A DNA stretch of 64,000 nucleotides, taken from the NCBI GenBank assembly GCA_030550175.1, contig JAUQPW010000001.1, forward strand, positions 10,898 to 74,897, in the 5' to 3' direction. The number at the start of each line of letters is the position of its first letter. The stretch's first letter is position 1. The notes under the pieces were generated by a model. The model saw nothing but the letters and a program-made list of their open reading frames with translations, was not told where the DNA came from and searched no databases. The translations under genes and the position numbers were made by a program. This stretch comes from a bacterium (GTDB lineage Bacteria > Moduliflexota > Moduliflexia > Moduliflexales > JAUQPW01). Shown here one piece after another: positions 2,630 through 64,000 of the stretch.

Positions 2630-3536
2630 AGTTGGCTGGTGCCGATAAGGCCTCCTTTTTAACCTTTAACTCCTGAATGCGATCTTCCCCCAGCAATTGC
2701 AAATAAGAATGCCGGGTTTTTATACCTTTAACCCATCGATTTAACCATTTTTGAAAGCCTTCCAAGGTTTTAGTTTCTTCATGATAGTCTCTATAGAACC
2801 CATGATCCCGGTTGTAATAACCCTGTACCGGAGAAGGATGGGCGCCCCAGGGTTCTTCAACTACAGCCGAGACCAGAAAACCTGGAATGAGAGTACGGTT
2901 CGGGTCACTCCGGATAACGTCGGGAGACACAATTTCTTCTGTAACTAAAATAAGGGATCGACTGGCCCGGGCTGCATCTCCGGTAATTCCCGTATTTCCC
3001 CAAATATGGGCGTTACCTTCCGGGTCGCAACGCTGGACCTGGATAATGGCGATATCAGGATGAATCGCCTGAACGGCCAGAAGCTTCTCACCGGTAAAGG
3101 GGCAACATATTTCCTTCATCCCGGGATGATTTACAGGAAGATCAGACCCCAGAGCTGTTTTAGTGGGTAGATAAGGGACTCCCAAGGCAGCGGCATGGAG
3201 AGCCAGGGCTATGGTAAAATTAGAATGATCTTCCACGTCTATAGGATGAGGAATCCCTTCTTCAACCGCCCGACGAAAATTATAACCGGATCCCATCATG
3301 ACATTTCCCACCCAGGCGGCTACAACTTTTCGTACACATCCTGCACCTATAAGCAAGTCGAAGAGAATATCGGAGATAGGTCCGATGAGGGTAAGATCCC
3401 TCCGACCCTGACGGATTATCTCATGCCCTGCTGAAAACGGAATCAGGGATTCCAAAGCCGTTCCTGCAACAATACTCATTCCATCACGGACAAATTGTGC
3501 AATAGCCTCTTGCATGGATAAAATTTTACGGTTCAT
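2619..3536 (-). CDS. CoA-transferase subunit A (glutaconate / 3-oxoacid CoA-transferase family)
   Basis: 305 aa. Family I CoA-transferase alpha-subunit pattern (IVAGTALESLIP..., GPISDILFDLLIGAG), paired with subunit B. Confidence 0.85.
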   Translation of the reverse strand: MNRKILSMQEAIAQFVRDGMSIVAGTALESLIPFSAGHEIIRQGRRDLTLIGPISDILFDLLIGAGCVRKVVAAWVGNVMMGSGYNFRRAVEEGIPHPIDVEDHSNFTIALALHAAALGVPYLPTKTALGSDLPVNHPGMKEICCPFTGEKLLAVQAIHPDIAIIQVQRCDPEGNAHIWGNTGITGDAARASRSLILVTEEIVSPDVIRSDPNRTLIPGFLVSAVVEEPWGAHPSPVQGYYNRDHGFYRDYHEETKTLEGFQKWLNRWVKGIKTRHSYLQLLGEDRIQELKVKKEALSAPANFGY

Positions 3537-3959
3537 AACTTATCTTTAGTAACTACGGTTATAGGACCTGTGCTTATCACCGATTCTTTGGATTTTTCCT
3601 CCTACTATAAAATAGATTGACGACCAGATCTCTTTCAGTTTAACCGATGTGGGGGTTAAAAATCAAATACGAAGTGTGAAAAGAAAAAATTTTTAAAGTC
3701 CCGGTTTGCGGTTTATACTAACTTGTAGTTAAATGAGTTGGGAATTACTTTAAGTCGGAGCCATTTCCATTAGTAGATGGGACTTTCCCAGACCTTTAGG
3801 TTATTAAAAAAGTTTAAGTAGAAAACCTCTTTTTTATAAGATCATCAGGATTGCTACAATTAAAAATTGACTTTATCCTGGAAGGTTAGATATAAATAAA
3901 ACTGAAAATCTGAATCTCAGGGTATAATAGCTTCTACGTTGAAACATCGCATAAACTAT

Positions 3960-10952: not shown

Positions 10953-11387
10953 TTAAGAAATGTTTTCAGGAGAAGGAATTTTACGGATAATGCTACAAGT
11001 ATTAGAACTTAAAGAGGAAATAACCAATCGGGGAGGTAGAAAAGGAGGGATGTTTAAGCTGATAGATAAAATAATCGTTGGAACAGACAACCCAACCAGG
11101 TTTGTGAAAGCCATGAGTTTCTTTTGTAAGGAAGGTTGGCAGATGGGATTTCTTTTCTCTTTCCATAATGACAGGAGTAATTCATGATCTTCTATGGAAG
11201 ACATGTAGTAAAATAAGCTTTGGGGGAAAAAGAGAATATTCTTTTCAAAGGATAATTTGAAATAAAAATCAGTAAAAGGGTCTGACGGGTCTTCTATTCT
11301 TTCTATAAAGATAGTGAAAAAGTTTCCCAGGGCAAGCAAGGATACGATTAATGGGATGATAAGAAAGTTGGCTCTTCTATCCCTCAT
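10953..11387 (-). CDS. Doubtful ORF in an AT-rich spacer (hypothetical)
   Basis: 144 aa, low-complexity, I/L/S/F-rich, no motif, in a 1.1-kb AT-rich intergenic region. Confidence 0.15.
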   Translation of the reverse strand: MRDRRANFLIIPLIVSLLALGNFFTIFIERIEDPSDPFTDFYFKLSFEKNILFFPQSLFYYMSSIEDHELLLSLWKEKRNPICQPSLQKKLMAFTNLVGLSVPTIILSISLNIPPFLPPRLVISSLSSNTCSIIRKIPSPENIS

Positions 11388-11870
11388 TTTAAATAATCAG
11401 GAATCGATTTTCCCCTCTTACATAAAAAAACTGACCTCTACAGGTCTATCAACGAATATAAAGTAAAGTCTCCCCCTCCATGCAAGCAAGGGAGACAAAG
11501 AAATTTGTTGACAAAAATTCTATCAGCCAACTAAAGTCAGTTTATACTTCCAAGATCACCATTACAATAACCGAATAAAGTAAATACTATACTTTTGCCG
11601 TTTTTAACTCTTAATCCCTGAAGGACTAAGAAGAACTATGAAAAGCATGAGAGTATAGGAGTTTGGGAGTATGGGAGGGTTTAAATCTATACGCCCTTAT
11701 CTTCCTGATTCCATACTCTTCGTGGACAAACCAAATCCACAGTTTAGAAAAAATGCGAAGGTATAGGAACTATACCGATAACTAAAAAAGAAGTCCTTAA
11801 AAGTAACGGGAACTTATAGAGCCAAAAAGGCTGGAGTTCTCGGTTTATTTGATAGGGCAAAACTTCTATT

Positions 11871-51762: not shown

Positions 51763-53274
51763 ATGCGTCTTAATATCGTCATCTTTGTTTGTGGAGGCGT
51801 ACTTATGGCTTTAGAGATCGTAGGAAGCCGAGTACTGTCGCCACATTTTGGAAGCTCGATCTATGTTTGGGGAAGCTTAATCTCCGTGTTTCTGGCCGCT
51901 TTGACGACCGGATACTTTTTAGGTGGAAAGGTAGCGGATCGGAGTCCACGCTTACAAAGCCTGGGGCGGATCATCTTCCTTACCAGCTTTGTCATCTGGG
52001 CTATTCCCCTCTTTTCAGTTCAAATCATCACTTTTTTAATCAATATGGGATTGGGAGTTCGATTTGCCCCTTTGATGACTTGCCTTCTCCTCTTTTTTTT
52101 ACCCAGTATGTTGTTGGGCATGGTTTCCCCTTATGGAATCCGGTTGGCAGCCGTAGAAGTTGCAACCGTGGGAAATGTATCCGGAACTCTCTACGCCATC
52201 TCCACGGCGGGAAGTATTGCAGGAACGCTGCTGACCACTTTCGTTTTAATTCCTCTCATACAGGTTCGAACCATTTTTTATAGCTTAGGAGCTGTTCTGA
52301 TCCTCATTTCACTCCTTACCTTGAAACGAATTACCTCCGTCCAGGCTATGGTACGTGCAGCTATTCTGGTTATAACCTGGTTTTTCTTCCAGGAGCTACC
52401 AGAACCCAGTATTATTTCACCGGATTTTGGCGAGGTTATTTATCAACGGGATACGGCCTATCATCGGGTTTTTGTAACTCAAAACGATCACTATCGTTTC
52501 TTGCGATTTGATCGTACCTGGCAGAGCAGTATGGATATCCAGGATCCTTATCAGTCAAAGTTTACCTACCCCGATTATTTTCAACTTGCTTGGATTTTTA
52601 AACCGGACATTCAAAAAGTTCTGATTATCGGTATGGGAGGTGGGGCTGCTTCCAAAAAATTTTATAAAGACTACCCTCACGTGAGGGTGGAAAATGTGGA
52701 AATCGATCCGGTGGTAGCAGAAGTTGGAAAGAAGTATTTTTATATTCCTCAAGACGCCAGATCCCAAATCTTTATAGAAGATGGTCGGGTTTACGTGGTA
52801 CGAAACCCAGGTCCTTACGATTTAATCATTCTGGACGCTTTCTTTGGTGAAACGATGCCTTTTCATCTGATGACCATCGAATTCTTTCAAATGGTCAAAG
52901 AGCGGTTGACCCCTCAGGGGGTCGTCGCCGTTAACTTTTTGGGAGCGTTAGGGGGTAAAAAAAGCCAGCTTTTTCGATCCTTTTATAAAACCCTCAGCAC
53001 GGTTTACCCCCAGGTTCTGGTCTTCCCAGAGGACTGGGAACCCGGAGACGATATGGAATTAGAGGGAAATTTGATTATTTTTGCCACCCTAAGACCCGAT
53101 CATCTCTCCAAAGATCAGATCGTTCAGACGGCAAAGAAGTTAAAATCTGGATTTGTTAAGGTGCCTCGACTGGATGAATTTGCTGAGAAGCTTTATACAG
53201 CAAGGATTGAAACGAAGGACGTCCCCATCCTCACAGATCAATACGCCCCGGTAGAGGCCCTTCGACAGTTATAA
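51763..53274 (+). CDS. Spermidine-synthase-like (aminopropyltransferase fold) protein fused to an N-terminal polytopic membrane domain
   Basis: N-terminal ~200 aa with about 7 TMs. The C-terminal half has the SpeE-type methyltransferase-fold motifs (VLIIGMGGG, LIILDAF). Confidence 0.7.
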   Translation: MRLNIVIFVCGGVLMALEIVGSRVLSPHFGSSIYVWGSLISVFLAALTTGYFLGGKVADRSPRLQSLGRIIFLTSFVIWAIPLFSVQIITFLINMGLGVRFAPLMTCLLLFFLPSMLLGMVSPYGIRLAAVEVATVGNVSGTLYAISTAGSIAGTLLTTFVLIPLIQVRTIFYSLGAVLILISLLTLKRITSVQAMVRAAILVITWFFFQELPEPSIISPDFGEVIYQRDTAYHRVFVTQNDHYRFLRFDRTWQSSMDIQDPYQSKFTYPDYFQLAWIFKPDIQKVLIIGMGGGAASKKFYKDYPHVRVENVEIDPVVAEVGKKYFYIPQDARSQIFIEDGRVYVVRNPGPYDLIILDAFFGETMPFHLMTIEFFQMVKERLTPQGVVAVNFLGALGGKKSQLFRSFYKTLSTVYPQVLVFPEDWEPGDDMELEGNLIIFATLRPDHLSKDQIVQTAKKLKSGFVKVPRLDEFAEKLYTARIETKDVPILTDQYAPVEALRQL

Positions 53275-53358: not shown

Positions 53359-53655
53359 GTGGTTTCCACACTTAAAAACATCGGAACTACCATTAAAGAA
53401 GGAGCTGTAACAGGTGGAAAAGCAGTCAAGGGGGTAGGAGAGGAAATTTCCGATGCAACCATCACTTCGGCCATCAAGACCAAGTTTGCCAGCGATGACC
53501 AGATAAAAGCTTTGGATATCGATGTAGATACCGAAAACAGCGTCGTAACCCTCACCCCCCATGTTCCGGAAGTAAATATGGATAGAGCCGTAGAAATCGC
53601 AAGAAACCTTCCCGGAGTTAAAGAAGTTCGAGTTAAACCCGTCGAGAGACGATAA
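53359..53655 (+). CDS. BON-domain protein (OsmY-like)
   Basis: ITSAIKTKFASDDQIKALDIDVDTENSVVTLTPHV...LPGVKEVRVKP. GTG start after an AAGGTGG Shine-Dalgarno. Confidence 0.65.
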   Translation: MVSTLKNIGTTIKEGAVTGGKAVKGVGEEISDATITSAIKTKFASDDQIKALDIDVDTENSVVTLTPHVPEVNMDRAVEIARNLPGVKEVRVKPVERR

Positions 53656-53808: not shown

Positions 53809-55572
53809 ATGGGTAGAGCCGATTTTCATTCAATCTGGAAATACAAATTGGGACCGGTATTAGGTTTCGCCCTTCTCAGTTGTGGGTTCTTTTGGTTTAA
53901 GGCGGGAGAGAAAAGTATTTGGGCCAAAGATATCGAAGGTATGCGGGCGGAGGTCGTGCGGGAGATGGTAACTTCGGGATACTGGCTTATTCCCCATCTT
54001 AACGGAGAAATCCTGGTTACCAAACCCCCCTTCTATTTTTGGCTGGCCGGTTTTTGCTCTCTTCTTGCAGGAGAGGTCACCGAATATACCCTGAGTCTTC
54101 CTTCTGTCATCGGTGGATTTTTGGGTCTGGTATGGACTTTCCTCATCGGGCTCCAACTTTTTAATTATCGCATTGCCTGGTTATCCACTCTTATATTGGC
54201 CACCAGCCCTTTGTATATCCTTATGTCACGCACCATCAATCTGGATATGACCCTGGCCTGGCTAACAACGGCTACCATAGGGTGTTTTCTACTAGGATTT
54301 CAAAGCCAGGGAAAATCCAGCAGCAGATATTATCTTTGGGCCTTCACGTTTATGGGATTAGCCACCATGACCAAAGGACCTATCGGAGTCATGATTCCCG
54401 GGATTCCCATTCTGGGTTATTTAGGATGGAAGTTAATTTGGAGACAGGAAGTAGCAGATAGTAAATCAGAGGAAGAAGGTAAAAAGCAAAGGGTCGAAGA
54501 GAGTTTGTTGCGGAAACGACTCTTTACCCTTTGCCCCTGGCGGACTATTTTAATAGGAATCGGGATTTTCCTGCTTATAACCTTACCCTGGGCCATCCTG
54601 GTCTATTTCCGAGTACCTAACCTCGGAGAAATCCTTTATCTAGAAACCCTCTTCCGCTATGAACGGCCCAATTATCAGAATGCCAAGCCCTTTTATTTTT
54701 ATTTTATAGCCTTACTGGAAGCCCTGGCTCCCTGGTCTTTATTTTTGCCAGGTGGATTCCTGGCCGTTGTGGAGAAATACAAAGCCAAATCTTACCACTC
54801 TACCTCCTTACTTTCTGCCCTTGTTTTCCTTTTCCTTTGGATCTGGCCTAGCTTTTTTATATTTTCTATAACCAGCACAAAACGAGATTACTACCTTCTT
54901 CCCCTCTGTCCGGCCCTGGCTTTATGGGTTGCATGGATCTGGGATAACTATCTGACCGGTCAGGCTTCTGAGGGACAACAAAAACTTTTCTCTTTCGCAA
55001 TCCTCAGTATTGCAGGTATTTTTCTCTTAGGACCTCTGGGCATCCTCATCTTTGTTTATCTCTTTTTCCCAGATCTGATCAAGATAGCCCTTGTTCTATG
55101 CCTTATATATGCCATTTTGAGTAGTTTCCTCCTTATTCTGTTTCTTAAATCAAAAAATTCAAAAACCTCTTTTCTTCGATCTCGAGGGTCCCTTGTCTTC
55201 CTGGTAATTATACTGGCCCTTGCCGTTGGTTGGGGGACCTGGTTTACCGTAGGCCTTCCAAAAATGGATTCTTTGAGAACCCGTAAGGAGTTCTTTCGTG
55301 AGGCGGCCTCCCTGGTTGGTTCTCACCGTCTGGTCAACTATAGATACAATGGATACGATCTCCAGTTCTATGTCAAACGAATAGTTCCTATTATTCAAGA
55401 GCCCGCTCAACTTTATGAACTTCTAAAATCATCCGATCCGGTTTACATTCTTATGGAAGATACCCATTTTGATTCTCTTAAACTAGAAGGATTCAAAACG
55501 ATTCTGATCCGTGACCGAAGGGATCCGATTAATCCTCAAAAGGTCAGACGAATGATTTTAATATCCAATTAG
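53809..55572 (+). CDS. GT39/ArnT-like lipid-carrier-dependent glycosyltransferase (PMT_2 family)
   Basis: 587 aa polytopic. The N-terminal region REMVTSGYWLIPHLNGEILVTKPPFYFWL matches the ArnT/PMT signature (…SGDW..P.LNG..Y..KPPL.YW). Confidence 0.75.
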   Translation: MGRADFHSIWKYKLGPVLGFALLSCGFFWFKAGEKSIWAKDIEGMRAEVVREMVTSGYWLIPHLNGEILVTKPPFYFWLAGFCSLLAGEVTEYTLSLPSVIGGFLGLVWTFLIGLQLFNYRIAWLSTLILATSPLYILMSRTINLDMTLAWLTTATIGCFLLGFQSQGKSSSRYYLWAFTFMGLATMTKGPIGVMIPGIPILGYLGWKLIWRQEVADSKSEEEGKKQRVEESLLRKRLFTLCPWRTILIGIGIFLLITLPWAILVYFRVPNLGEILYLETLFRYERPNYQNAKPFYFYFIALLEALAPWSLFLPGGFLAVVEKYKAKSYHSTSLLSALVFLFLWIWPSFFIFSITSTKRDYYLLPLCPALALWVAWIWDNYLTGQASEGQQKLFSFAILSIAGIFLLGPLGILIFVYLFFPDLIKIALVLCLIYAILSSFLLILFLKSKNSKTSFLRSRGSLVFLVIILALAVGWGTWFTVGLPKMDSLRTRKEFFREAASLVGSHRLVNYRYNGYDLQFYVKRIVPIIQEPAQLYELLKSSDPVYILMEDTHFDSLKLEGFKTILIRDRRDPINPQKVRRMILISN

Positions 55573-55717: not shown

Positions 55718-56668
55718 ATGTATAAAATTCCCTGCGATATCGTAACCGGTTTTTTAGGAAGTGGAAAGACGACACTTCTGAAATATATACTACAACACGG
55801 CCTCAACAACCGCCGGGTGGCCATTGTCATGAACGAATTGGGGGATCTAGGGGTGGATGGAAAAGTAATCAAAGATCTGGAAGCAGTTGAAAAGCTGGTA
55901 GAGCTGGATAACGGCTGTATTTGCTGCTCTATTGGATTTCGCTTTGCCCTGGCTATACAGGAAATTATTGAAACGACAAATCCGGAACTGATTATCATCG
56001 AAACCACCGGCGTCGCCGAACCCCAACCCCTCCTTCAAGAGTTGGGGGTTGCCGGTCTTACTCTAGATGCGGTTATCACGGTTGTAGACGCAGAAAATCT
56101 GTTGGGGATTCATTCCCAAAGTGTGGTTACGGAAAAACAGATTGAAGCAGCAGACTTTATCGTTCTCAACAAGATCGACCTGGTCGATGAAAAACGCCTA
56201 CGTAAAGTTGAAAAGTATCTTCATAAATTGAATGACCGTGCGCTTCTTCTACCTACCTCCTATGGTCAGGTTAAAACCGATCTTTTATTCGGTACAAGCG
56301 TACGGAATTATCGGGAAAAACTTCGTACCTCTCCATCAGATTCCCATGCGGAAGGCCACTCCCATCTGGAACAGGACGAAATCTCCGCTTTCATTTATAA
56401 GGGTGAGAACCTGCTGGAACGTAAAAAGTTCGAGCGTTTTCTCTCAGAGTTACCTTCCCATGTCTACCGGGCTAAGGGATTCATGAAATTCATCAACGAA
56501 AGCATGCCGTCCTTGTTTAACTACACCTGCGGACGGTTTGATTTTAATTGGTATACTTTGAAAGACGGGGATCAGATCAAACCTCAAGCTGTATTCATCG
56601 GGAAGAATATCCATCTCGTTAAGGAAAAAATACTTAAAAACTTGGAAAAGTGTGAGATCAGAATCTGA
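55718..56668 (+). CDS. CobW/COG0523-family GTPase (putative metal chaperone)
   Basis: P-loop GFLGSGKTT, CxCC motif GCICCS, C-terminal CobW_C-like domain with a His-rich segment SDSHAEGHSH. Confidence 0.85.
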   Translation: MYKIPCDIVTGFLGSGKTTLLKYILQHGLNNRRVAIVMNELGDLGVDGKVIKDLEAVEKLVELDNGCICCSIGFRFALAIQEIIETTNPELIIIETTGVAEPQPLLQELGVAGLTLDAVITVVDAENLLGIHSQSVVTEKQIEAADFIVLNKIDLVDEKRLRKVEKYLHKLNDRALLLPTSYGQVKTDLLFGTSVRNYREKLRTSPSDSHAEGHSHLEQDEISAFIYKGENLLERKKFERFLSELPSHVYRAKGFMKFINESMPSLFNYTCGRFDFNWYTLKDGDQIKPQAVFIGKNIHLVKEKILKNLEKCEIRI

Positions 56669-56886
56669 GTTGCCTGGAAATTTTTTCTTGATAAAATTTT
56701 TTCTTCCCGGGGTTTTGACACTATCCTAAGCTTCATCTATACAAAATATAAGATGGTCTTGGAGGGGTGTGGTAACTACGCCCCTTACCAGGTAAGGTTG
56801 AATAGCTACATTATCTTGAAAAAGGAGTAGGAGACCGCATCGTTTGGGATGCAAACTCCTGCCTTCTCTGAAAAGTATAAACCCAT

Positions 56887-56950
56887 TGAGATTTATGGTT
56901 GATGGTGGTTAGATCGGATGAGATTTATGGTTGATGGTGGTTAGATCGGA
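56887..56950. repeat. Perfect 32-bp tandem duplication (tgagatttatggttgatggtggttagatcgga x2) within a 1.1-kb non-coding leader
   Basis: Copy 1 is 56887-56918 and copy 2 is 56919-56950, identical. Each contains a mini-ORF ATG GTT GAT GGT GGT TAG (MVDGG*). Confidence 0.8.
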
Positions 56951-57765
56951 AAAACAAGAGTCTAAAAATTAGACGTTTCTTCCTAAAAGGATATTCTCTT
57001 CTAAAAAAGAAACTTCTCTACAAAGGAAAGTAAAAAATTGTCAGATTATAGGTCTGAAAGTTAGACCTTCTCCCTATCAGGCCTTCCGTTACGGAAATAT
57101 ATTCCGGTTCTGCCTACCCTCCGGATTGTTCAAACTTCTGGTTCCCATTTTATAAAGTGGTACTTGAATTGCAGAAGAAAATGGTCACATAGCTTACTTA
57201 CAAGAGTTTAATCATAACCCCTGTAAGGCATCTTTATCCCCGTCCATTCAGATACTTTTCCATGCCTTACCGTGAGAAGGCGTATGCCATTTCACAGAAC
57301 GGAAGGGATCATCCAGCAGATTCGCAAGCCGAACGAAGTATCAATTTGAAGTGAAACCTCTTCGGGGACGGGGAAATTTGGAGAGGAGTACGACGGATAA
57401 AACTATACTTATACCCGAAAACGCCTCCTGGCAGGTATATCCCATCAGAAATTTACTGTAGAAATTTTAACCTTGAAATTTTTCTTGAAAAGATTCAGAT
57501 AGAATCATTTATCTAAACCTATGAGAGGTAGCCAGGTAAGGTATCTGTTTCAGTGAAAATCTCAAAGCAATTTCCCCATGAAATCCACGTTGTTGACACC
57601 ATCGGATCCTATGATTAAAGAACAACAAAATCATAAAGAAGTGGCGTCTGACTACAAGGATGTGAAGAAACCGTCCCCTGCTGGTTAAAAGCCGAGATAT
57701 TTTAGTGAGAATTGATAAGGAATATACAGAACCAACCCAATTTTTAATCAAGAAAGGAATAAACC

Positions 57766-58794
57766 ATGAGAGTATTAGTCACAGGGCATAAAGGTTATAT
57801 TGGAATGGTGATGGTTCCTATGCTTCTAAAGGCAGGGCATAGCGTAATAGGGTTAGATACGAATTTTTATGAAGGGTGCACGTTTGGAGACGGGGTTGAC
57901 ACGGTTCCAGAAATAAGAAAGGACCTTCGGGATGTAGAAGCATCTGATCTGAGAGGTTTTGACGCGATTATTCATTTAGCTGCGTTATCCAATGATCCGT
58001 TGGGAGATTTAAACCCGGACTTAACTTACGATATCAATCATAAAGCAACGGTTCGTTTGGCTGAGATAGCCAAACAAGTTGGGATTTCCCGTTTTCTTTT
58101 TTCCTCATCCTGTAGTAATTATGGGGCTGCTGGGGATGCTTTGCTGAATGAGGAAGCCCCTTTTCATCCGGTTACTGCGTATGGAATTTCAAAAGTACGT
58201 GCTGAACAAGACCTGGTAAAGCTGGCCGACGATAATTTCTCCCCTATCCTTCTCCGTAGTGCAACGGCTTATGGGGTATCCCCTCGTTTACGCCTTGATG
58301 TGGTTCTCAACAATCTGACCGCTTCCGCTTTCACAACCGGTAAAATCTTTTTGAAAAGTGATGGGACTCCCTGGCGACCTATTGTGCATATTGAGGATAT
58401 TTCTCGTGCCTTCCTGGCTGTACTCCAGGCCCCCCGTGAACTTGTACATAATCAAGCATTTAATGTCGGCAGACCAGAAGAAAATTATCGTATCCGCGAG
58501 ATAGCAGAGATAGTTAAGCAAACGATTCCCAATTGTTGCATTGAATTTGCAAAGGATGCAGGCCCGGATAAACGATGCTACCGGGTAGATTCCAGTAAAC
58601 TGATCCGTACCCTACCTGAGTATAAACCCCAGTGGAATGTCAGACAAGGAGCCGAACAACTTTATAAAGCTTACCAACAAGTCGGACTGACGATCACAGA
58701 CTTTGAAGGTCCAAAATACAAACGGATTGATCAGATTAAGAAACTGATCCGTGAGGGCCGATTAGACGAGAATCTGCGCTGGCGTGATAAATAG
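57766..58794 (+). CDS. NAD-dependent sugar epimerase/dehydratase (extended SDR)
   Basis: MRVLVTGHKGYIGMVMVPMLLKAGHSVIGLD, the catalytic YGISKVRAEQ (Y-x3-K) and the SxS motif upstream (SSSCSNYG). Confidence 0.8.
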   Translation: MRVLVTGHKGYIGMVMVPMLLKAGHSVIGLDTNFYEGCTFGDGVDTVPEIRKDLRDVEASDLRGFDAIIHLAALSNDPLGDLNPDLTYDINHKATVRLAEIAKQVGISRFLFSSSCSNYGAAGDALLNEEAPFHPVTAYGISKVRAEQDLVKLADDNFSPILLRSATAYGVSPRLRLDVVLNNLTASAFTTGKIFLKSDGTPWRPIVHIEDISRAFLAVLQAPRELVHNQAFNVGRPEENYRIREIAEIVKQTIPNCCIEFAKDAGPDKRCYRVDSSKLIRTLPEYKPQWNVRQGAEQLYKAYQQVGLTITDFEGPKYKRIDQIKKLIREGRLDENLRWRDK

Positions 58795-58807
58795 GAGGAA
58801 TTTGGTG

Positions 58808-60046
58808 ATGATAAATATTCCGAGTTGCAGATTTTGTGGTTTCGGTTTACGTCACATTTTTGTGGATTTGGGAATGCTCCCTCTTTGTGAAAGTTATATA
58901 AGCGAGGATCAGCTCAACCGAATGGAGCCGTTCTATCCCCTTCATCCCTACGTCTGCGAGCGTTGTTTTCTGGTTCAACTGGAGGTCTATGTAGCTCCTG
59001 AAGAAATATTTTCGGAATATGCCTATTTCTCATCCTATTCGGATAGCTGGGTACAGCACGCCAAACAATATGTAGAAATGATTACGAAACGGCTCAGGCT
59101 GAATGACCGGAGTTTAGTCATAGAGTCGGCCAGTAACGATGGCTACCTGCTTCAACACTTTGTGGCTATGGGAATACCTGTTCTGGGAGTCGAACCTGCA
59201 GCTAATGTCGCCAAAGTCGCCATAGCTAAAGGAGTTCCAACGCTAGTTAAGTTCTTCGGGGAGGAATTAGCCCGGGAATTGCTCGCTGAAGGTAAACAAG
59301 CCGATCTTTTAGTAGGTAATAACGTATTAGCCCAGGTACCCGATTTGAATGATTTCGTGAAGGGGTTGAAAGTACTCCTTAAACCCCAAGGTGTGATTAC
59401 CCTGGAGTTCCCACATCTCATGCGCTTGGTGGAGGAAAATCAATTCGATACGATTTATCATGAGCATTTTTCCTACTTCTCCTGGTTTACCACCGAAAAG
59501 ATATTTGCAGAACACGGGTTAAAGCTTTTTGATGTGGAAGAACTCCCTACCCATGGAGGTTCGTTAAGAATCTATGCCTGTCATGCAGAGAACACTTCTC
59601 AATCTGTAAGTGAGAGGGCCCGGGAACTCAAATCCAGAGAAGAAGCTGCCGGGATTACCCATCTGACCTACTACGCTTCCTTTGCCGAAAAAGTAAAGGA
59701 AACCAAGCGTAAACTCTTAGAACTCCTGATCGGTATCAAACGGGCAGGAAAATCTATTGTCGGATATGGCGCTCCGGGTAAAGGAAATATTTTATTGAAC
59801 TACTGTGGTATCCGATCTGATTTTCTGGATTATACCGTGGATCGCAATCCTTATAAACAAGGTAAGTTTTTACCGGGAACCCATATTCCCATATTTCCAC
59901 CGGATAAAATCAAGGAGACTCAGCCGGATTATGTGATGATCCTACCCTGGAATTTCAAAGACGAAATTATGGAACAGATGGCGTACATACGGAATTGGGG
60001 GGGTCGATTCATCGTACCCATCCCCGAGCCAAGGATTTATCCATGA
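58808..60046 (+). CDS. Sugar C-methyltransferase family protein (TylCIII/NovU-like class I SAM MTase with an N-terminal Zn-ribbon); the ORF opens at 58784
   Basis: N-terminal CRFCGF...CERCFLVQ Zn-ribbon. The SAM-binding fold (VIESASNDGYLLQHF) and C-terminal domain are typical of NDP-hexose C-methyltransferases. AGGAGG lies 9 nt upstream of ATG 58808. Confidence 0.7.
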   Translation: MINIPSCRFCGFGLRHIFVDLGMLPLCESYISEDQLNRMEPFYPLHPYVCERCFLVQLEVYVAPEEIFSEYAYFSSYSDSWVQHAKQYVEMITKRLRLNDRSLVIESASNDGYLLQHFVAMGIPVLGVEPAANVAKVAIAKGVPTLVKFFGEELARELLAEGKQADLLVGNNVLAQVPDLNDFVKGLKVLLKPQGVITLEFPHLMRLVEENQFDTIYHEHFSYFSWFTTEKIFAEHGLKLFDVEELPTHGGSLRIYACHAENTSQSVSERARELKSREEAAGITHLTYYASFAEKVKETKRKLLELLIGIKRAGKSIVGYGAPGKGNILLNYCGIRSDFLDYTVDRNPYKQGKFLPGTHIPIFPPDKIKETQPDYVMILPWNFKDEIMEQMAYIRNWGGRFIVPIPEPRIYP

Positions 60047-60582
60047 TTTTTAACCCAACAAAACTGAAAGGCGCTTACCTTATCGAACTCGAAAAACGAG
60101 AGGACGAACGTGGTTTTTTTGCCCGTTCCTGGTGCCAGCGGGAGTTTGAAGCACATGGGCTCAATCCAAGATTGGTACAATGTAACATATCCTTTAACAA
60201 GAAAAAGGGTACCTTGCGGGGAATGCACTACCAAGCTCCCCCCTACCAGGAAGCTAAATTGATTCGATGTACCGCCGGAGCTATCTATGATGTGATTATC
60301 GATTTACGTCAGAACTCCGAAACCTATAAGGAATGGATTGCTGTGGAACTCACGGCCGAGAATCGTAAAATGTTATACGTACCGGAAGGTTTTGCCCATG
60401 GATTTCAGACTTTAATGGACAATACCGAAGTGTTTTATCAGATGTCTGAATTTTACATACCGCCATACAGCCGGGGGATACGTTGGAATGATCCGCAGTT
60501 TAAGATTATCTGGCCTGAAGCCGAGGAGCGTGTCATCTCGTTAAAGGATCAAACTTATCCAGATTTTGAAGGGATCAGGTAA
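60043..60582 (+). CDS. rfbC: dTDP-4-dehydrorhamnose 3,5-epimerase-family (RmlC-like cupin) sugar epimerase
   Basis: LIELEKREDERGFFARSW...GTLRGMHYQAPPYQEAKLIRCTAGAIYDVIIDLR...VPEGFAHGFQTL is the RmlC signature. ATGA overlap with the upstream stop. Confidence 0.8.
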   Translation: MIFNPTKLKGAYLIELEKREDERGFFARSWCQREFEAHGLNPRLVQCNISFNKKKGTLRGMHYQAPPYQEAKLIRCTAGAIYDVIIDLRQNSETYKEWIAVELTAENRKMLYVPEGFAHGFQTLMDNTEVFYQMSEFYIPPYSRGIRWNDPQFKIIWPEAEERVISLKDQTYPDFEGIR

Positions 60583-60732
60583 AGTGAACCTATCGGGCTA
60601 CAGATAGAATACCTTACAGATTCGTCTCAGGTAAAACCCTGTTGGGAATGAGGCTGAAGGAAACATTTCATATTTCTAACCTTATGCCGGTTCCATCAGA
60701 GTAAAGCCTGGGAACCAAATCTTTTAGAAAAA

Positions 60733-62049
60733 ATGGATATAACTCAACTTAACGCGGTTTTAAAACCTGACGAAATCGGTCAAGAGATGTATCACCTCAT
60801 CTCCGAGTTGTATCCTATTTGCCGGAGTATTACGGGAAATGGTTTCAGGGAGACCCTCCAGATAATTAAAAATTACATTCCCTTAAACATTTATGAAGTT
60901 CCAACCGGAACCCAGGTATTCGACTGGACGGTTCCCAAAGAATGGAATATCCGAGATGCCTATGTAAAAAATTCAAAGGGTGAGAGGATTATAGATTTCA
61001 AGAAATCTAACCTGCACGTGGTAAATTATAGCATACCCATCAAGACCAAAGTCTCCCTAACCGAGTTACGGGAACATCTTTTCACCTTACCGGAATATCC
61101 AGATTGGATTCCCTATAGAACGTCCTACTACAAGGAAAACTGGGGTTTCTGTCTAAGTCACAGGCAATTATTGGAGTTAGAGGAAGATGAATATGAAGTG
61201 TGTATTGATGCTTCCCTGGAAAAAGGTCATCTAACCTATGGAGAATATTACCTTCCGGGAAAAGGTTCAGAGGAGATACTCCTGACCTGTCATACCTGTC
61301 ATCCTTCACTTTGTAATGATAATCTTTCCGGCATTTCTCTGGTAACTCATCTGGCCAAACAGCTAGGTTCTCTTTCACTCCGATACTCCTACAGATTTCT
61401 TTTCATTCCTGGAACCATCGGTTCTATTACTTGGCTCTGTTTAAATGAAACTCATGTTTCCAGGATCAGGCATGGCCTGGTAGTAGCCAACGTGGGAGAT
61501 TCAGGTAAGTCCACTTACAAGAAAAGTCGCCGGGGAGATGCAGAAATAGATAAAGCAGTCAGTCACATCTTAAAGCATTCGGGTCAAGATTATGAGATTC
61601 TAGACTTCTCCCCCTATGGCTATGACGAAAGGCAGTTTTGTTCGCCCGGGTTCAATCTCCCTGTGGGATGTTTAATGAGGACCCCCTATGGTTGTTTTCC
61701 TGAGTATCATACCTCGGCAGATAATCTAGATTTCGTTCGACCGGAGTATCTGGCAGATTCCTTTTCAAAATACCTGGCCGTTTTAAATGTTTTGGAGAAT
61801 AACAAGAAATATTTGAACAAAAATCCCAAGTGTGAGCCCCAGTTAGGTAGAAGAGGATTGTACCGGGCAATGGGAGGGCAAAAAGACGTAGGAACTTTTG
61901 AGCTGGCCCTACTTTGGGTTCTGAATCTGTCCGACGGTAAACACACACTGTTGGATATTGCAGATAGATCTGGTTTAAAGTTTGATTTAATTAAAAATGT
62001 GGCAGACGCTCTCAAGGAGCATGATTTGCTGGAGGAGTTTTCAGATTAA
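60733..62049 (+). CDS. DUF2172/DUF4910-type aminopeptidase-like protein with a C-terminal winged-helix, embedded in the sugar cluster
   Basis: 438 aa. M28-like fold hints (H/D/E residues, EYHTSADN). C-terminal HTH-like LLWVLNLSDGKHTLLDIADRSGLKFDLI. Function unknown. Confidence 0.5.
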   Translation: MDITQLNAVLKPDEIGQEMYHLISELYPICRSITGNGFRETLQIIKNYIPLNIYEVPTGTQVFDWTVPKEWNIRDAYVKNSKGERIIDFKKSNLHVVNYSIPIKTKVSLTELREHLFTLPEYPDWIPYRTSYYKENWGFCLSHRQLLELEEDEYEVCIDASLEKGHLTYGEYYLPGKGSEEILLTCHTCHPSLCNDNLSGISLVTHLAKQLGSLSLRYSYRFLFIPGTIGSITWLCLNETHVSRIRHGLVVANVGDSGKSTYKKSRRGDAEIDKAVSHILKHSGQDYEILDFSPYGYDERQFCSPGFNLPVGCLMRTPYGCFPEYHTSADNLDFVRPEYLADSFSKYLAVLNVLENNKKYLNKNPKCEPQLGRRGLYRAMGGQKDVGTFELALLWVLNLSDGKHTLLDIADRSGLKFDLIKNVADALKEHDLLEEFSD

Positions 62050-62106
62050 GCACCTTCAATTATCCCTAATTCAGGGCAAATCATTAAGGCCAAAGGAGAG
62101 GTTTAG

Positions 62107-62949
62107 ATGAAAGTTGTTTTATTTTGTGGCGGCCTGGGAATGCGGTTAAAAGAGTATTCTGAAACCATTCCTAAGCCCATGGTACATATCGGATATCGAC
62201 CCATATTGTGGTACGTGATGAAGTATTATGCCCATTATGGATATAAAGATTTTATCCTCTGCCTGGGTTATAAGGCAGATATCATCAAGAACTATTTCCT
62301 GGATTACAAGGAGTATCTTTCCAATGATTTTATTCTCTCCAATGGAGGCAGAGAGCTCCAACTCTTCAATCGGGATATTCAAGACTGGAAAGTTACTTTT
62401 GTAGATACCGGTCTAAATTCAAACATCGGTCAGAGGTTGAAAGCCGTTGAAGAATATTTAGAAGGAGAAGAGATATTTCTGGCTAATTACACCGATGGTC
62501 TCACCGATTTTTATCTTCCGAACTTGATAGATTATTTTCATAAAAATGATAAGATAGCGTGTTTTCTCTCTGTGAGACCGAATCATAGCTTTCATATTGT
62601 TTTAGCCCAAGAGGATGGAACAGTAACCCGTATACAAAGTTTAGCTGAGTCGGATATCTGGATAAACGGGGGATTTTTCGTCTTTAAAAGGGAAATTTTC
62701 GACCACATAAATCCGGGAGAAGACCTAGTTCAAGAACCTTTCTTGCGACTTATTGAGAAGAAAGAACTCATCACCTGGAAGTACGAGGGATTCTGGATGT
62801 GTATGGATACCTTTAAAGATAAGCAAATTCTAGATGAGATGTATGCCCGGGGAGATACTCCCTGGGAGGTATGGAAATCTTCTAAGACCTATCTCAATAC
62901 CCATATAAAGATTAAAAAAACTGACCCTGTTCAGGTTAAACTTCGCTAA
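62107..62949 (+). CDS. rfbF: Glucose-1-phosphate cytidylyltransferase (CDP-glucose pyrophosphorylase)
   Basis: MKVVLFCGGLGMRLKEYSETIPKPMV...FLANYTDGLTD...GFWMCMDTFKDK matches the RfbF/DdhA pattern. Confidence 0.85.
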   Translation: MKVVLFCGGLGMRLKEYSETIPKPMVHIGYRPILWYVMKYYAHYGYKDFILCLGYKADIIKNYFLDYKEYLSNDFILSNGGRELQLFNRDIQDWKVTFVDTGLNSNIGQRLKAVEEYLEGEEIFLANYTDGLTDFYLPNLIDYFHKNDKIACFLSVRPNHSFHIVLAQEDGTVTRIQSLAESDIWINGGFFVFKREIFDHINPGEDLVQEPFLRLIEKKELITWKYEGFWMCMDTFKDKQILDEMYARGDTPWEVWKSSKTYLNTHIKIKKTDPVQVKLR

Positions 62950-62985
62950 TAAAGGAAATCTGTTTAGTAGAAGAGACGATTGTAA

Positions 62986-63933
62986 ATGGAGACTAAATCA
63001 GGAAGATCCCTTTATCAACTTTCGGGCCAAAGGGTGCTCATTACCGGTGCCAGTGGGTTTATCGGATCGCACTTATGTTTCCGCCTATGTAAGAGTGGCG
63101 TGGAAGTGCATGCTATTTCCAGGATAAACCGCTCCGGAGAGAAGGGCGGTCCTTATTGGTGGCAAGGAGATTTAGCGGAAATAGAACAGGTTCGGAATCT
63201 TTTAAGGAATATTAAGCCCGATTTGATTTTTCATCTGGCAAGCTATGTAGCAGGAGCCCGGGATGCAAGCTCTGTCATGACTACCTTTCGTAACAACTTG
63301 GTCAGTACTGTGAACCTTTTAACGGTGGTAAATGAAATCGGCTGTAAACGAATGATCCTGGCCGGTTCCCTGGAAGAACCAGAACAGAGGAATCTATTGG
63401 CTATTCCCTGTTCACCCTATGCTGTGGCCAAGTGGGCGGGAAGTGCTTATGCCCGTATGTTTCACGCGCTTTATCAACTTCCTGTCGTTATTCTACGTAT
63501 CTTTATGGTTTATGGGCCTGCCCAACAGGATCTACAGAAGCTTATCCCGTATACGATACTTTCTTTACTCCGAGGAGAAGTTCCAAAGCTCACCAGTGGC
63601 CAAAGACCGGTTGACTGGATCTATGTTGAAGATGTAGTAGAGGGATTTCTTGCTGCAGCCCAGGCAGCCGACATAGAAGGTAACACCATTGACATTGGGT
63701 CAGGAAATTTGGTTTCCATTCGTGCTATTGTAGAGAACCTGGTTCGTTTGATCAATCCACAAATTCAACCTCTATTCGGGGCTTTAAGTGAAAGACCTTT
63801 TGAACAAATACGAGTCGCCGATACAGCAAGGTCTTATGCTCTGATAGGATGGAAGGCTACAACTGCCTTAGAAGAAGGATTAAAACGAACGGTCGATTGG
63901 TATAGACAACAATTAAAAGGGAAGTCTCTATAA
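62986..63933 (+). CDS. NAD(P)-dependent epimerase/dehydratase/reductase (extended SDR; candidate CDP-sugar reductase/epimerase)
   Basis: RVLITGASGFIGSHLCFRL, catalytic YAVAKWAGS (Y-x3-K). Confidence 0.75.
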   Translation: METKSGRSLYQLSGQRVLITGASGFIGSHLCFRLCKSGVEVHAISRINRSGEKGGPYWWQGDLAEIEQVRNLLRNIKPDLIFHLASYVAGARDASSVMTTFRNNLVSTVNLLTVVNEIGCKRMILAGSLEEPEQRNLLAIPCSPYAVAKWAGSAYARMFHALYQLPVVILRIFMVYGPAQQDLQKLIPYTILSLLRGEVPKLTSGQRPVDWIYVEDVVEGFLAAAQAADIEGNTIDIGSGNLVSIRAIVENLVRLINPQIQPLFGALSERPFEQIRVADTARSYALIGWKATTALEEGLKRTVDWYRQQLKGKSL

Positions 63934-63950
63934 AGGAGAAATTATCTTAC

Positions 63951-64000
63951 ATGCCAATAAATGAATCTAAGAAAAGATATAGCTTGAATCTCCGTGCCGG
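63951..64000 (+). CDS. 5' end of a further CDS continuing beyond the window (MPINESKKRYSLNLRA...)
   Basis: ATG at 63951 after an AAAGGAG Shine-Dalgarno. Open to the window end. Confidence 0.3.
   Translation, partial: MPINESKKRYSLNLRA

Follow-up and report, generated by a model that had tools for sequence, protein, structure and literature searches.

Described systems that the operon analyzed here resembles include the late steps of L-mycarose-type pathways, in which a C-3 methyltransferase (TylC3/EryBIII/MtmC), an RmlC-family 5-epimerase and a 4-ketoreductase act in antibiotic clusters on dTDP-2,6-dideoxy-4-keto sugars supplied by a 4,6-dehydratase, and the GDP-D-glycero-L-gluco-heptose pathway of Campylobacter jejuni, which relies on the C4-dehydrogenase Cj1427, the C3/C5-epimerase Cj1430 and the C4-reductase Cj1428. 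Cj1427 oxidizes a GDP-heptose at C4; its NAD(H) stays tightly bound to the enzyme and is regenerated as alpha-ketoglutarate is converted to L-2-hydroxyglutarate (PMC10680097). In addition, the operon encodes a member of the DUF4910 family, whose link to sugar clusters was described in 2014 by Das et al., who proposed transacylation for the family (PMC4000134); "uncharacterised", the label given to this gene by a sequence-only reading of the DNA, is fair for its biochemistry, although the family itself had been described. One family member, Cj1295, is required for a modified pseudaminic acid with an N-linked di-O-methylglyceroyl group (Hitchen et al. 2010, PMC3068675).

The window, i.e. the whole stretch of 64,000 nucleotides analyzed, holds six complete genes of the operon at 57766-64000, all on the forward strand (Table 1). 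Pfam and NCBIfam profile scores bear out the gene content given by the sequence-only reading for this region, as well as the ArnT-like transferase and CobW that it placed upstream. The ORF at 63951 is interrupted by the window end, and the window was extended via an identical contig (L001, 0 mismatches across 7080 nt), where the interrupted gene is followed by a PIG-L deacetylase, then a GT2 glycosyltransferase, then a Wzx flippase. The operon covers about 10.5 kb on a single strand, from 57766 to about 4.3 kb past the window end, so that the region in the window is its first two-thirds. Gene calls on the identical contig moved two starts, that of the methyltransferase from 58784 to 58808 and that of RmlC from 59995 to 60043; the latter shares 4 nt (ATGA) with the stop of the methyltransferase, to which RmlC is translationally coupled. 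On balance, we lean toward the view that this operon makes a nucleotide-activated 3-C-methyl-branched hexose for export, by C4 oxidation and not by a 6-deoxy route.

Table 1. Genes of the operon and its upstream neighborhood, in window positions
Feature	Position	Strand	Evidence or remark
PMT_2/ArnT-like GT-C transferase	53809-55572	+	PF13231, PF02366
CobW	55718-56668		upstream of operon
SDR1, extended SDR, Cj1427 type, proposed NDP-hexose C4-dehydrogenase	57766-58794	+	PF01370 148 bits
NDP-sugar 3-C-methyltransferase, TylC3/MtmC/TcaB9 type, 412 aa	58808-60046	+	Methyltransf_13, Methyltransf_23, Methyltransf_14
RmlC-type NDP-4-keto-sugar 3,5-epimerase, 179 aa	60043-60582	+	TIGR01221, PF00908
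DUF4910/DUF2172/HTH_47 zinc protein, CA_C2195/Cj1295 family	60733-62049	+	Pfam matches
RfbF-like sugar-1-phosphate (probably cytidylyl) transferase, NTa subfamily	62107-62949	+	TIGR02623 below cut-off, 1TZF match
SDR2, extended SDR, proposed terminal C4-ketoreductase	62986-63933	+	PF01370 152 bits
First 16 codons of 358-aa Cys-rich protein	63951-64000	+	full gene on identical contig L001

The case for C4 oxidation starts from SDR1. Its closest solved relative is Cj1427 (6VO6/6VO8; E 7e-39, 137 bits, with the runner-up at 82 bits), which also ranks first in a Foldseek search with SDR1. The two proteins have 32% identity, a distance at which extended SDRs often change function, and they share the motifs SPRxRxDxxxN (172-183) and PDKRxY (267-272). 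SDR1 contains S115-Y139-K143, and inspection of its motifs found no Asp/Glu-Lys dehydratase pair of the kind seen in the TSDKC of RfbG. By this likeness, SDR1 is proposed to be a C4-dehydrogenase that would give a 4-keto sugar without 6-deoxygenation. With no such acid/base pair in SDR1, and a C4-dehydrogenase as its nearest relative, the "6-deoxy" of the product named in the sequence-only reading has no support here.

The search for a 4,6-dehydratase points the same way. Against TIGR02622 (CDP-glucose 4,6-dehydratase, cut-off 278), SDR1 and SDR2 score 25.5 and 60.2 bits, compared with 477 bits for the true RfbG of related loci. No 4,6-dehydratase was found across the 64-kb window, including 58 kb upstream, and in a close relative (L084) no gene called within the 10 kb downstream resembles one. 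The gene at 63951, previously taken as the probable missing CDP-glucose 4,6-dehydratase, turned out after the downstream extension (7031-8107 on L001) to encode a protein of 358 aa that lacks an SDR domain and has no family in Pfam or NCBIfam; it has more than 8000 homologs, all unnamed, and its model (pLDDT 88) consists of two SH3/KOW-like barrels. With no dehydratase found and a Cj1427-type SDR1, the product is most likely not 6-deoxy. Of the earlier prediction, the synthesis of a C-methyl-branched hexose by a nucleotide-sugar cluster stands, but the dehydratase and the 6-deoxy product are not supported.

Gene context was compared across 80 loci of the nearest DUF4910 relatives; since these loci share ancestry, Fisher P values overstate their independence. 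In about 60 of them (61 by tblastn, 59 by ORF clustering), which represent seven phyla or more, the core genes are co-localized, and the same arrangement is present in L084, whose DUF4910 protein is 96% identical and whose DNA is about 92% identical over the cluster; the arrangement is thus not due to chance. Among the 59 methyltransferase loci, 45 have an SDR1-type gene and four have RfbG, but never both, and SDR1-type and canonical RfbG do not co-occur anywhere in the 80. Canonical RfbG lies within the cassette in five loci (L035, L042, L051, L061 and L065), in one of which, L051, it adjoins a 104-aa SDR remnant. Moreover, L-2-hydroxyglutarate oxidase genes (NF008726, 328-535 bits, cut-off 299) are confined to loci with the SDRb type (9 of 15) or with its remnant. 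Against an oxidase role of SDR1, none was found near the SDRa type, to which SDR1 itself belongs (0 of 32 among the 80 loci), nor in the 64-kb window; outside the 80-locus set, L088 has this oxidase in one operon with an SDR 68% identical to SDR1. Cyanobacterial cassettes mostly have a single SDR, which leaves the reductase step unaccounted for there, and five Nostocales genomes have intact methyltransferase, NT, PIG-L and DUF4910 genes with no SDR or epimerase nearby, so that these two genes can either come from elsewhere or be dispensed with.

The remaining enzymes fit a branched-sugar pathway to different degrees. The methyltransferase (237 bits with Methyltransf_14) gives a full-length alignment with MtmC (4RV9, E 4e-84), matches KijD1 and TcaB9 (E about 1e-63 to 1e-67) and has the N-terminal Cys4 zinc ribbon (Cys7, 10, 50 and 53); it is a true relative of sugar 3-C-methyltransferases and not of a non-sugar family, in line with the earlier assignment. 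The RmlC protein scores 188 bits with TIGR01221, above the cut-off of 155.75, and 225 bits with PF00908, and we propose that, after methylation of C3, it would act on C5 alone. The nucleotidyltransferase is indeed RfbF-like (1TZF, E 7e-56), but its 229.6 bits with TIGR02623 are below the equivalog cut-off of 300.25, and it falls in the NTa subfamily and shares 38% identity with canonical RfbF from related loci (450 bits). PIG-L co-occurs with NTa in 38 of 41 loci and with canonical RfbF in 0 of 12; this coupling makes an N-acetylhexosamine a possible sugar. CDP is the probable nucleotide, as the enzyme is RfbF-like and its subfamily is paired with canonical RfbG (CDP-glucose 4,6-dehydratase) in L061 and L065. 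Among solved structures, SDR2 is closest not to RfbG but to 4-epimerases, UXS and the RMD reductase, and it carries the motifs GSLEEP (127) and YAVAK (145). Only 8-9 of the 80 loci have SDR2, which adjoins DUF4910 directly downstream in the anammox loci and never accompanies the classical SDR "c6", which fills the same slot in 23 loci.

In the pathway that we propose, the RfbF-like transferase would turn a sugar-1-phosphate into what is probably a CDP-sugar, and SDR1, judging from its nearest relative and its context, would oxidize C4 to a 4-keto sugar with the 6-OH kept. The TylC3/MtmC-type enzyme, whose family is clear, would then methylate C3 with SAM, the RmlC-type enzyme, also clear in family, would epimerize C5, and SDR2 would be the putative C4 reductase. 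Past the window, the PIG-L deacetylase, GT2 and Wzx flippase would process and export the sugar, and the upstream GT-C may join them. The product is likely a CDP-activated 3-C-methyl hexose that retains its 6-OH, and it may be amino-substituted.

The DUF4910 zinc protein belongs to the conserved core of the cassette, in which it constantly accompanies the methyltransferase and the epimerase. A profile search confirmed the domains named by the sequence-only reading, DUF4910 (396 bits) and DUF2172 (144 bits), together with HTH_47 (98 bits), and the protein is 60% identical to CA_C2195 (3K9T, E 2.8e-172). Peptidase_M28 gives 19.4 bits, short of the cut-off of 21.3. The Zn ligands H190, D196 and H326 are retained, whereas the catalytic Asp and Glu of M28 are replaced by S192 and P226; these five positions are invariant in 79 of 79 relatives. 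A peptidase role was rejected. More than 8000 homologs were found; identity across phyla is 65-75%, and the gene lies immediately downstream of RmlC in 24 loci, and of PIG-L in 18. We tentatively suggest that the protein might act on the NDP-4-keto intermediate, before the final reduction, with its single zinc, bound by His-Asp-His, serving as a Lewis acid. A somewhat less probable role lies away from the sugar nucleotide, as an amidase or transacylase on an amino-sugar substituent or as a non-catalytic scaffold or regulator working through its winged-helix domain. Clan MH contains many deacylases, and the wHTH domain and the high identity across phyla could reflect protein-protein contacts. 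The requirement for Cj1295 (PMC3068675) and the transacylation proposal (PMC4000134) favor this role too. However, anammox/Nitrospirota-type cassettes, which have canonical RfbF without aminotransferase, acyltransferase or deacetylase, keep DUF4910 with no predicted acyl-amine substrate; the invariant Zn site argues for catalysis over scaffolding, and a gene inside enzyme operons, not divergently transcribed, does not suit a regulator.

Two other accounts would restore a 6-deoxy product. One may argue that a 4,6-dehydratase encoded elsewhere in the genome leads to a vinelose- or virenose-like CDP-6-deoxy-3-C-methyl-L-hexose, with SDR1 and SDR2 as reductase and epimerase. The characterized methyltransferase relatives (MtmC, KijD1, TcaB9) all use 6-deoxy-4-keto sugars, which also counts against the C4-oxidation pathway, canonical RfbG sits inside the same cassette in five related loci, and, judging from the Nostocales genomes, genes of the cassette can use partners encoded elsewhere. 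Comparable sugars exist: CDP-vinelose and GDP-virenose are C-methyl 6-deoxy sugars, and the CDP-vinelose of Azotobacter vinelandii is CDP-6-deoxy-3-C-methyl-2-O-methyl-L-talose. Nevertheless, we regard a displaced dehydratase as unlikely, since a cassette with RfbG either lacks the SDR1-type gene or retains only a remnant of it, as expected of alternatives and not partners, since the link to L-2-hydroxyglutarate oxidase suits an oxidase and not a reductase, and since neither the 58 kb upstream nor the 10 kb downstream in L084 contains a recognizable dehydratase. More improbable still is that SDR2 is a divergent NDP-hexose 4,6-dehydratase and SDR1 the final 4-ketoreductase. SDR2 does have LegB (117 bits) and RmlB, the dTDP-glucose 4,6-dehydratase (104 bits), as its best NCBIfam matches, and Ser-x-Glu in GSLEEP stands where GMD- and LegB-type dehydratases carry Thr-Ser-Glu, features that speak against the C4-oxidation pathway as well; but both matches are weak and far under the family cut-offs, and the nearest solved relatives lie elsewhere. 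Moreover, the slot that SDR2 occupies in so few loci otherwise belongs to a 242-aa classical SDR incapable of 4,6-dehydration, and L027, which has L-2-hydroxyglutarate oxidase, SDRb and SDR2 together, fits SDRb as oxidase and SDR2 as reductase.

The C4-oxidation pathway combines features of several known systems. With L-mycarose-type late steps it has three enzyme families in common, which follow each other in the same logical order, but it probably uses CDP, has no dehydratase and lies in a surface glycan export context (GT2, Wzx), and its DUF4910 and PIG-L genes have no counterpart there. With the C. jejuni heptose pathway it shares the logic of C4 oxidation, epimerization and reduction with no 6-deoxygenation, and the L-2-hydroxyglutarate oxidase found beside the SDR in related loci, though not in the window, matches the by-product of Cj1427; it differs in its predicted CDP-hexose instead of a GDP-heptose and in the inserted C-methylation step. 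The RfbF and RfbG 3,6-dideoxyhexose pathways have a similar nucleotidyltransferase, and some sister cassettes have canonical RfbF and RfbG, whereas the window enzyme is of the PIG-L-coupled subfamily below the equivalog cut-off and RfbG is absent. The yersiniose-like analogy drawn earlier is poor, as the yersiniose branch is made by a ThDP enzyme and not by a SAM C-methyltransferase.

A GT2, a flippase and a PMT_2/ArnT-type GT-C in or beside the operon also recall three-component periplasmic systems (ArnC/ArnT with the ArnD deformylase; GtrA/B/C; CsbB/GtcA/YfhO), and by analogy the upstream GT-C may be a periplasmic transferase using a lipid-linked sugar, with PIG-L in parallel to ArnD or GlcNAc-PI de-N-acetylase. 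The GT-C scores 60.7 bits with PF13231, 46.9 bits with PF02366 and 82.7 bits, far under the cut-off, with the ArnT profile NF009784; between it and the operon lie cobW and an ORF-free gap of 1.1 kb, the GT2 has no ArnC- or GtrB-type match, and most related loci lack a GT-C, although L087 has a GT2 and PMT_2 pair directly after the cassette. This likeness is thus taken as a lead only. In summary, the cell-surface methyl-branched-sugar operon is real and widespread among bacteria. Its DUF4910 protein has the same three domains, single-Zn ligands, M28 residue loss and sugar-modification setting as CA_C2195 and Cj1295, but the loci of those two are pseudaminic-acid/flagellin-glycan loci with acyl-carrier and acetyltransferase genes, whereas here and in most of the 80 relatives its partners are a C-methyltransferase, RmlC, a Cj1427-type SDR, an RfbF-like NT and PIG-L, which newly places DUF4910 in a conserved cassette common to many phyla.

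The 57766-64000 stretch comprises six complete genes on the + strand plus the start of a seventh, with successive spacers of 13 nt, a 4-nt overlap, 150, 57, 36 and 17 nt. Their reported content was confirmed by Pfam and NCBIfam, with two start codons corrected, and the PMT_2/ArnT-like GT-C transferase and CobW GTPase claimed upstream are both present; the annotated genes farther upstream are housekeeping ones, e.g. a nucleoside ABC transporter. The public contig L001 matches the window's final 7080 bases exactly (0 mismatches) and continues 4.47 kb beyond it, where the ORF from 63951 is completed as a 358-aa protein, followed by a PIG-L/LmbE-type deacetylase, a GT2 and a Wzx-type flippase. The same gene order is found in L084, a locus in a MAG labelled Candidatus Limnocylindrales, in which the cluster stops at the flippase; its DUF4910 protein is 96% identical to that of the window and its DNA is ~92% identical over the cluster.

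Genes of the cluster and of its continuation on contig L001
Feature	Position	Strand	Basis
SDR1, extended SDR	57766-58794	+	Pfam/NCBIfam
C-methyltransferase (Zn-binding Methyltransf_13, class I SAM domain, Methyltransf_14)	58808-60046	+	Pfam/NCBIfam
RmlC epimerase	60043-60582	+	exceeds NCBIfam equivalog cut-off
DUF4910/DUF2172/HTH_47 protein	60733-62049	+	Pfam; Peptidase_M28 under cut-off
RfbF-like nucleotidyltransferase (NT)	62107-62949	+	under RfbF equivalog cut-off, 229.6 vs 300.25 bits
SDR2, second extended SDR	62986-63933	+	Pfam/NCBIfam
PIG-L/LmbE deacetylase, just past the window	L001 8100-8753		PF02585 48.1 bits, cut-off 28.2

A 1.1-kb ORF-free gap (56669-57765) separates cobW from the operon. 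This leader holds a perfect 32-bp tandem duplication at 56887-56950 and, relative to L084, an insertion of ~300 nt; in L084, two sites are instead occupied by a short GC-rich palindrome, GGGCGGAAGGCCTTCCGCCC. Short inverted repeats were looked for in the window's leader and none was found, an Rfam search of 56500-57900 gave nothing beyond a chance match (E 0.96), promoter and terminator scans returned sites no more numerous than in shuffled sequence, and there are no tRNA genes within the window. Just upstream of the GT-C gene lie a fused MFS/spermidine-synthase protein (51763-53274; NF037959, 218 bits) and a small BON-domain protein (53359-53655), an order kept in L084. At the other end, the operon is met by a convergent gene (minus strand of L084, 17583-20582; L001 shows the end of it at 11353-11553). 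Its 999-aa product combines FG-GAP repeats and DUF5060 with an apiosidase-like (GH140-type) catalytic domain. This glycosidase family takes its name from a branched sugar, and here a member adjoins the putative branched-sugar operon.

The C-methyltransferase contains three domains (PF08421, 81 bits; PF13489, 49 bits; PF08484, 237 bits), has Cys7, 10, 50 and 53 in its Zn-binding domain, and matches MtmC (4RV9) at E 4e-84 across residues 4-412 and KijD1 and TcaB9 at 1e-62 to 1e-67. Both its architecture and its full-length similarity to characterised members place it in the NDP-sugar 3-C-methyltransferase family (TylC3/TcaB9/MtmC), and the sequence-only reading of it as a TylC3-like, sugar-type enzyme stands. 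The epimerase scores 188.3 bits against TIGR01221 (cut-off 155.75), and its sequence shows a His (RGMHYQ), a Lys (EAKLIRC), a Tyr and an Asp (WNDP), which we take to be the catalytic residues.

The same reading had predicted a CDP-linked 6-deoxy C-methyl hexose and had made this pathway depend on a CDP-glucose 4,6-dehydratase (RfbG) encoded from 63951. The 358-aa protein starting there has no SDR domain whatever and matches no Pfam or NCBIfam family, so the assignment is refuted on its own terms. Neither SDR fills the role: against the TIGR02622 equivalog cut-off of 278.45 bits SDR1 scores 25.5 and SDR2 60.2, compared with 477 bits for a genuine RfbG in the related locus L065. The Asp-Lys acid/base pair that follows the catalytic Ser/Thr of RfbG (TSDKC in the enzymes of L065 and of another locus, L035) is absent from both, the alignment showing SSSCSN in SDR1 and GSLEEP in SDR2, and tblastn across the whole 64-kb window found no RfbG. 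That interpretation is therefore right in part: its dehydratase and 6-deoxy element fails the reading's own test. Neither "6-deoxy" nor "RfbF/RfbG pathway" should be annotated from this gene set. The suggested analogy to yersiniose was also dropped, because the branch of that sugar arises by another chemistry.

With each species represented by a single genome, a scan recovered 80 loci in which the DUF4910 protein shares 65-75% identity with that of the window; they belong to Cyanobacteria, Nitrospirota, anammox and other Planctomycetota, Chloroflexota, Acidobacteriota, Bacteroidota, Desulfobacterota and Gammaproteobacteria (Crenothrix). These were compared in two ways, by tblastn and by clustering of all ORFs, and the counts drawn from them are not phylogenetically independent, so that P values derived from them serve as a guide only. 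Of the 80, 59-61 contain the methyltransferase and 52-56 contain RmlC. The gene immediately 5' of DUF4910 is RmlC in 24 cases, and in 18 it is PIG-L. In Scytonema sp. NIES-4073 the SDR, RmlC, methyltransferase, NT, PIG-L and DUF4910 genes stand alone amid unrelated genes, and the cassette is distributed over cyanobacteria, anammox planctomycetes, Nitrospirota, Chloroflexota, Acidobacteriota and methanotrophs. Five Nostocales genomes (Brasilonema, Scytonema NUACC26 and Dendronalium; L019, L024, L029, L030, L033) have intact methyltransferase, NT, PIG-L and DUF4910 genes with SDR and RmlC missing, the sole RmlC trace being 21 aa in L033; hence a core of four genes is maintained without them. Literature searches for a product or cassette combining a C-methyltransferase, a cytidylyltransferase and CDP-glucose, and for 3-C-methyl LPS in cyanobacteria, returned nothing relevant.

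If a 4-keto sugar is not formed by a dehydratase, SDR1 is the candidate to form it. Its nearest solved relative is 6VO6/6VO8 (137 bits; next match 82 bits), which by entry titles is Cj1427 of Campylobacter jejuni, consistent with a mechanism review (PMC10680097), and whose sequence shares 96% identity with a C. jejuni gene located amid capsule heptose genes. The top Foldseek matches of the SDR1 model are also titled Cj1427, an outcome favoured by the model's alignment, for which Cj1427 homologues were used. The Campylobacter enzyme oxidises a GDP-heptose at C4 with no dehydration, its tightly held NADH being re-oxidised by alpha-ketoglutarate to give L-2-hydroxyglutarate, and is followed by an RmlC-type epimerase and then a C4-reductase (PMC10680097). 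Identity between SDR1 and Cj1427 is just 32%. SDR1 keeps S115, Y139 and K143 with no acidic residue following the catalytic Ser (SSSCSNYG), and R174, R176, D178, N182, D268, K269 and R270 are invariant in SDR1 and 20 Cj1427 homologues and absent from SDR2 and RfbG in the alignment. Moreover, the two Cj1427-type subgroups, SDRa (which includes SDR1) and SDRb, account for 45 methyltransferase loci versus 4 for canonical RfbG, with no locus holding both. From its nearest relatives and gene context, SDR1 is a putative C4-oxidase of the Cj1427 type.

An L-2-hydroxyglutarate oxidase gene directly adjoins a Cj1427-type SDR in the sugar operons of L016, L027, L066, L067, L074 (at 2563-3759), L075, L076, L082, L014/L087 and L088, with NF008726 scores of up to 535 bits among such loci. 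Within the 80-locus set these oxidase genes (NF008726 328 and 535 bits, cut-off 299) are confined to the neighbourhood of SDRb (9 of 15 loci) or of an SDRb remnant, none accompanies the SDRa type, and none is present in the 64-kb window; in L088, which lies outside the set, an SDR 68% identical to SDR1 shares its operon with one. An oxidase beside a Cj1427-type SDR points to a dedicated loop recycling the L-2-hydroxyglutarate that arises from alpha-ketoglutarate as a by-product, and no description of such a loop was found in the literature searched. At L051 5480-5794, a 104-aa SDRb remnant, 85% identical to intact copies, is flanked by an L-2-hydroxyglutarate oxidase gene and a canonical RfbG, which looks like one 4-keto-forming enzyme replacing the other, with the swap under way.

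SDR2 has an S-x-E motif, and its best hits are weak ones to dehydratase models. In related loci, SDR2 is never found together with a 242-aa classical SDR, and each lies directly 3' of DUF4910, a mutually exclusive use of the same slot that fits a common ketoreductase role; the classical SDR is absent from the whole window. By its nearest relatives and gene context, SDR2 is a putative C4-reductase. In cyanobacterial cassettes with a single SDR, no gene accounts for the reduction step, and the sugar might be oxidised and then reduced again by that one enzyme. An apparent 528-aa SDR2-PIG-L fusion in L090 (6387-7973), from a long-read MAG, was discarded as evidence: its ~40-residue Arg/Pro/Gly-rich junction and an SDR part lacking its C-terminus make a frameshift likely.

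The nucleotidyltransferase matches RfbF (TIGR02623) over the full profile but scores below the equivalog cut-off, and is therefore called RfbF-like here. Two types are seen among the 80 loci: NTa, 58-69% identical to the window's enzyme, and NTb, the canonical RfbF (449.8 bits in L051). PIG-L accompanies NTa in 38 of 41 loci and NTb in none of 12. The activating nucleotide is probably CDP, given the RfbF-like fold and the presence of NTa together with a canonical RfbG in L061 and L065. The close tie between NTa and PIG-L, whose metal motifs HxDD and HxxH are intact (HCDD at residue 22, HQDH at 119), suggests, as a more speculative step, that the activated sugar bears an N-acetyl group later removed by PIG-L. 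By analogy with ArnD or GlcNAc-PI de-N-acetylase, this could take place while the sugar is still attached to its nucleotide or once it is lipid-linked.

The profile check bore out both DUF4910 (395.6 bits) and the inserted DUF2172 (143.5 bits), and added a C-terminal HTH_47 (98.3 bits), all exceeding their cut-offs. The protein is 60% identical to CA_C2195 (PDB 3K9T; E 2.8e-172), and its single-Zn His-Asp-His set, H190, D196 and H326, corresponds to H189, D195 and H324 there. An M28 peptidase function is ruled out: PF04389 reaches 19.4 bits (cut-off 21.3), and Ser192 and Pro226 occupy the positions of the catalytic Asp and Glu, both being invariant, like the zinc ligands, in 79 of 79 relatives; an active M28 aminopeptidase would bind two Zn ions through five ligands. 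Das et al. (2014) likewise concluded that the CA_C2195 family is not a peptidase and linked it to modified-carbohydrate operons (PMC4000134). Another member, Cj1295, is needed for di-O-methylglyceroyl pseudaminic acid on flagellin (PMC3068675) and is still listed merely as a putative transferase in a 2026 source. Thus the sugar-operon link has been published since 2014, and what is new here is the C-methyl cassette setting, in which most of the nearest 80 relatives are located.

As to its chemistry, retention of DUF4910 in canonical-RfbF cassettes without amino- or acyl-transfer genes speaks against a role as amidase or transacylase in those loci. In 31 of the 80 loci DUF4910 has an SDR partner adjoining it or nearby, and one also adjoins CA_C2195 (PMC4000134). 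For the cassette loci, an NDP-4-keto sugar intermediate is predicted. The same kind of intermediate is presumably formed at the Cj1295 locus, from the PseB step. Because this intermediate and the SDR partner are shared, our tentative guess, held at rather less than even confidence, is that DUF4910 performs a Zn Lewis-acid step on the keto-sugar ahead of its final reduction. In 12 cyanobacterial loci (L036, L037, L041, L043, L044, L046, L048-L050, L055, L059, L073), DUF4910 is found only with the 242-aa classical SDR, which is PRK08219-like and immediately downstream, in housekeeping surroundings with no further sugar gene nearby. A ~300-aa protein absent from the window often adjoins DUF4910 in related cassettes (L032 4608-5537, L088 14737-15645, L090 4559-5464); the only signal it gives is a faint one for a 2OG-Fe(II) oxygenase (PF13759, E 0.001), and in such cassettes the protein could contribute a hydroxylation.

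Taken together, the best explanation, resting on the methyltransferase, epimerase and NT families, is that the operon makes a nucleotide-activated 3-C-methyl-branched hexose. The NT would activate the sugar, SDR1 would oxidise C4, the TylC3-type methyltransferase would methylate what is presumably C3 rather than C5, the RmlC-type epimerase would act on C5, and SDR2 would reduce C4. The product most likely retains its 6-hydroxyl, unlike the sugar first proposed. A broader claim is that SDR, RmlC, C-methyltransferase, NT, PIG-L and DUF4910 form a self-contained, horizontally spread cassette for an undescribed route to a CDP-3-C-methyl (amino)hexose with a 6-OH, via an alpha-ketoglutarate-recycled C4-oxidase and with DUF4910 as a new NDP-keto-sugar zinc enzyme; in its entirety we consider it unlikely. 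Sugars with a C-methyl branch are rare and, as surface components, strongly antigenic; all routes to them known to us go via a 4,6-dehydratase. If the cassette does use a Cj1427-type C4-oxidase instead, ping-pong dehydrogenase chemistry would be carried beyond Campylobacter heptoses, and non-deoxy 3-C-methyl hexoses would be predicted in environmentally dominant Nostocales, anammox bacteria, Nitrospirota and Crenothrix; if the broader claim is true, the CA_C2195/Cj1295 family would at last gain an assigned chemistry. More than 8000 members of that family have been detected, a crystal structure has been available since 2009/2014 and genetics in C. jejuni has given a phenotype, and the cassette offers the family a defined, testable biochemical setting in which the neighbours are all of known chemistry. 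Compared with known systems, the methyltransferase is of the same family as TylC3, MtmC and TcaB9, and the operon would be a variant of known branched-sugar pathways, one that pairs TylC3-type methylation with probable Cj1427-type oxidation and regularly includes a zinc protein that is still uncharacterised.
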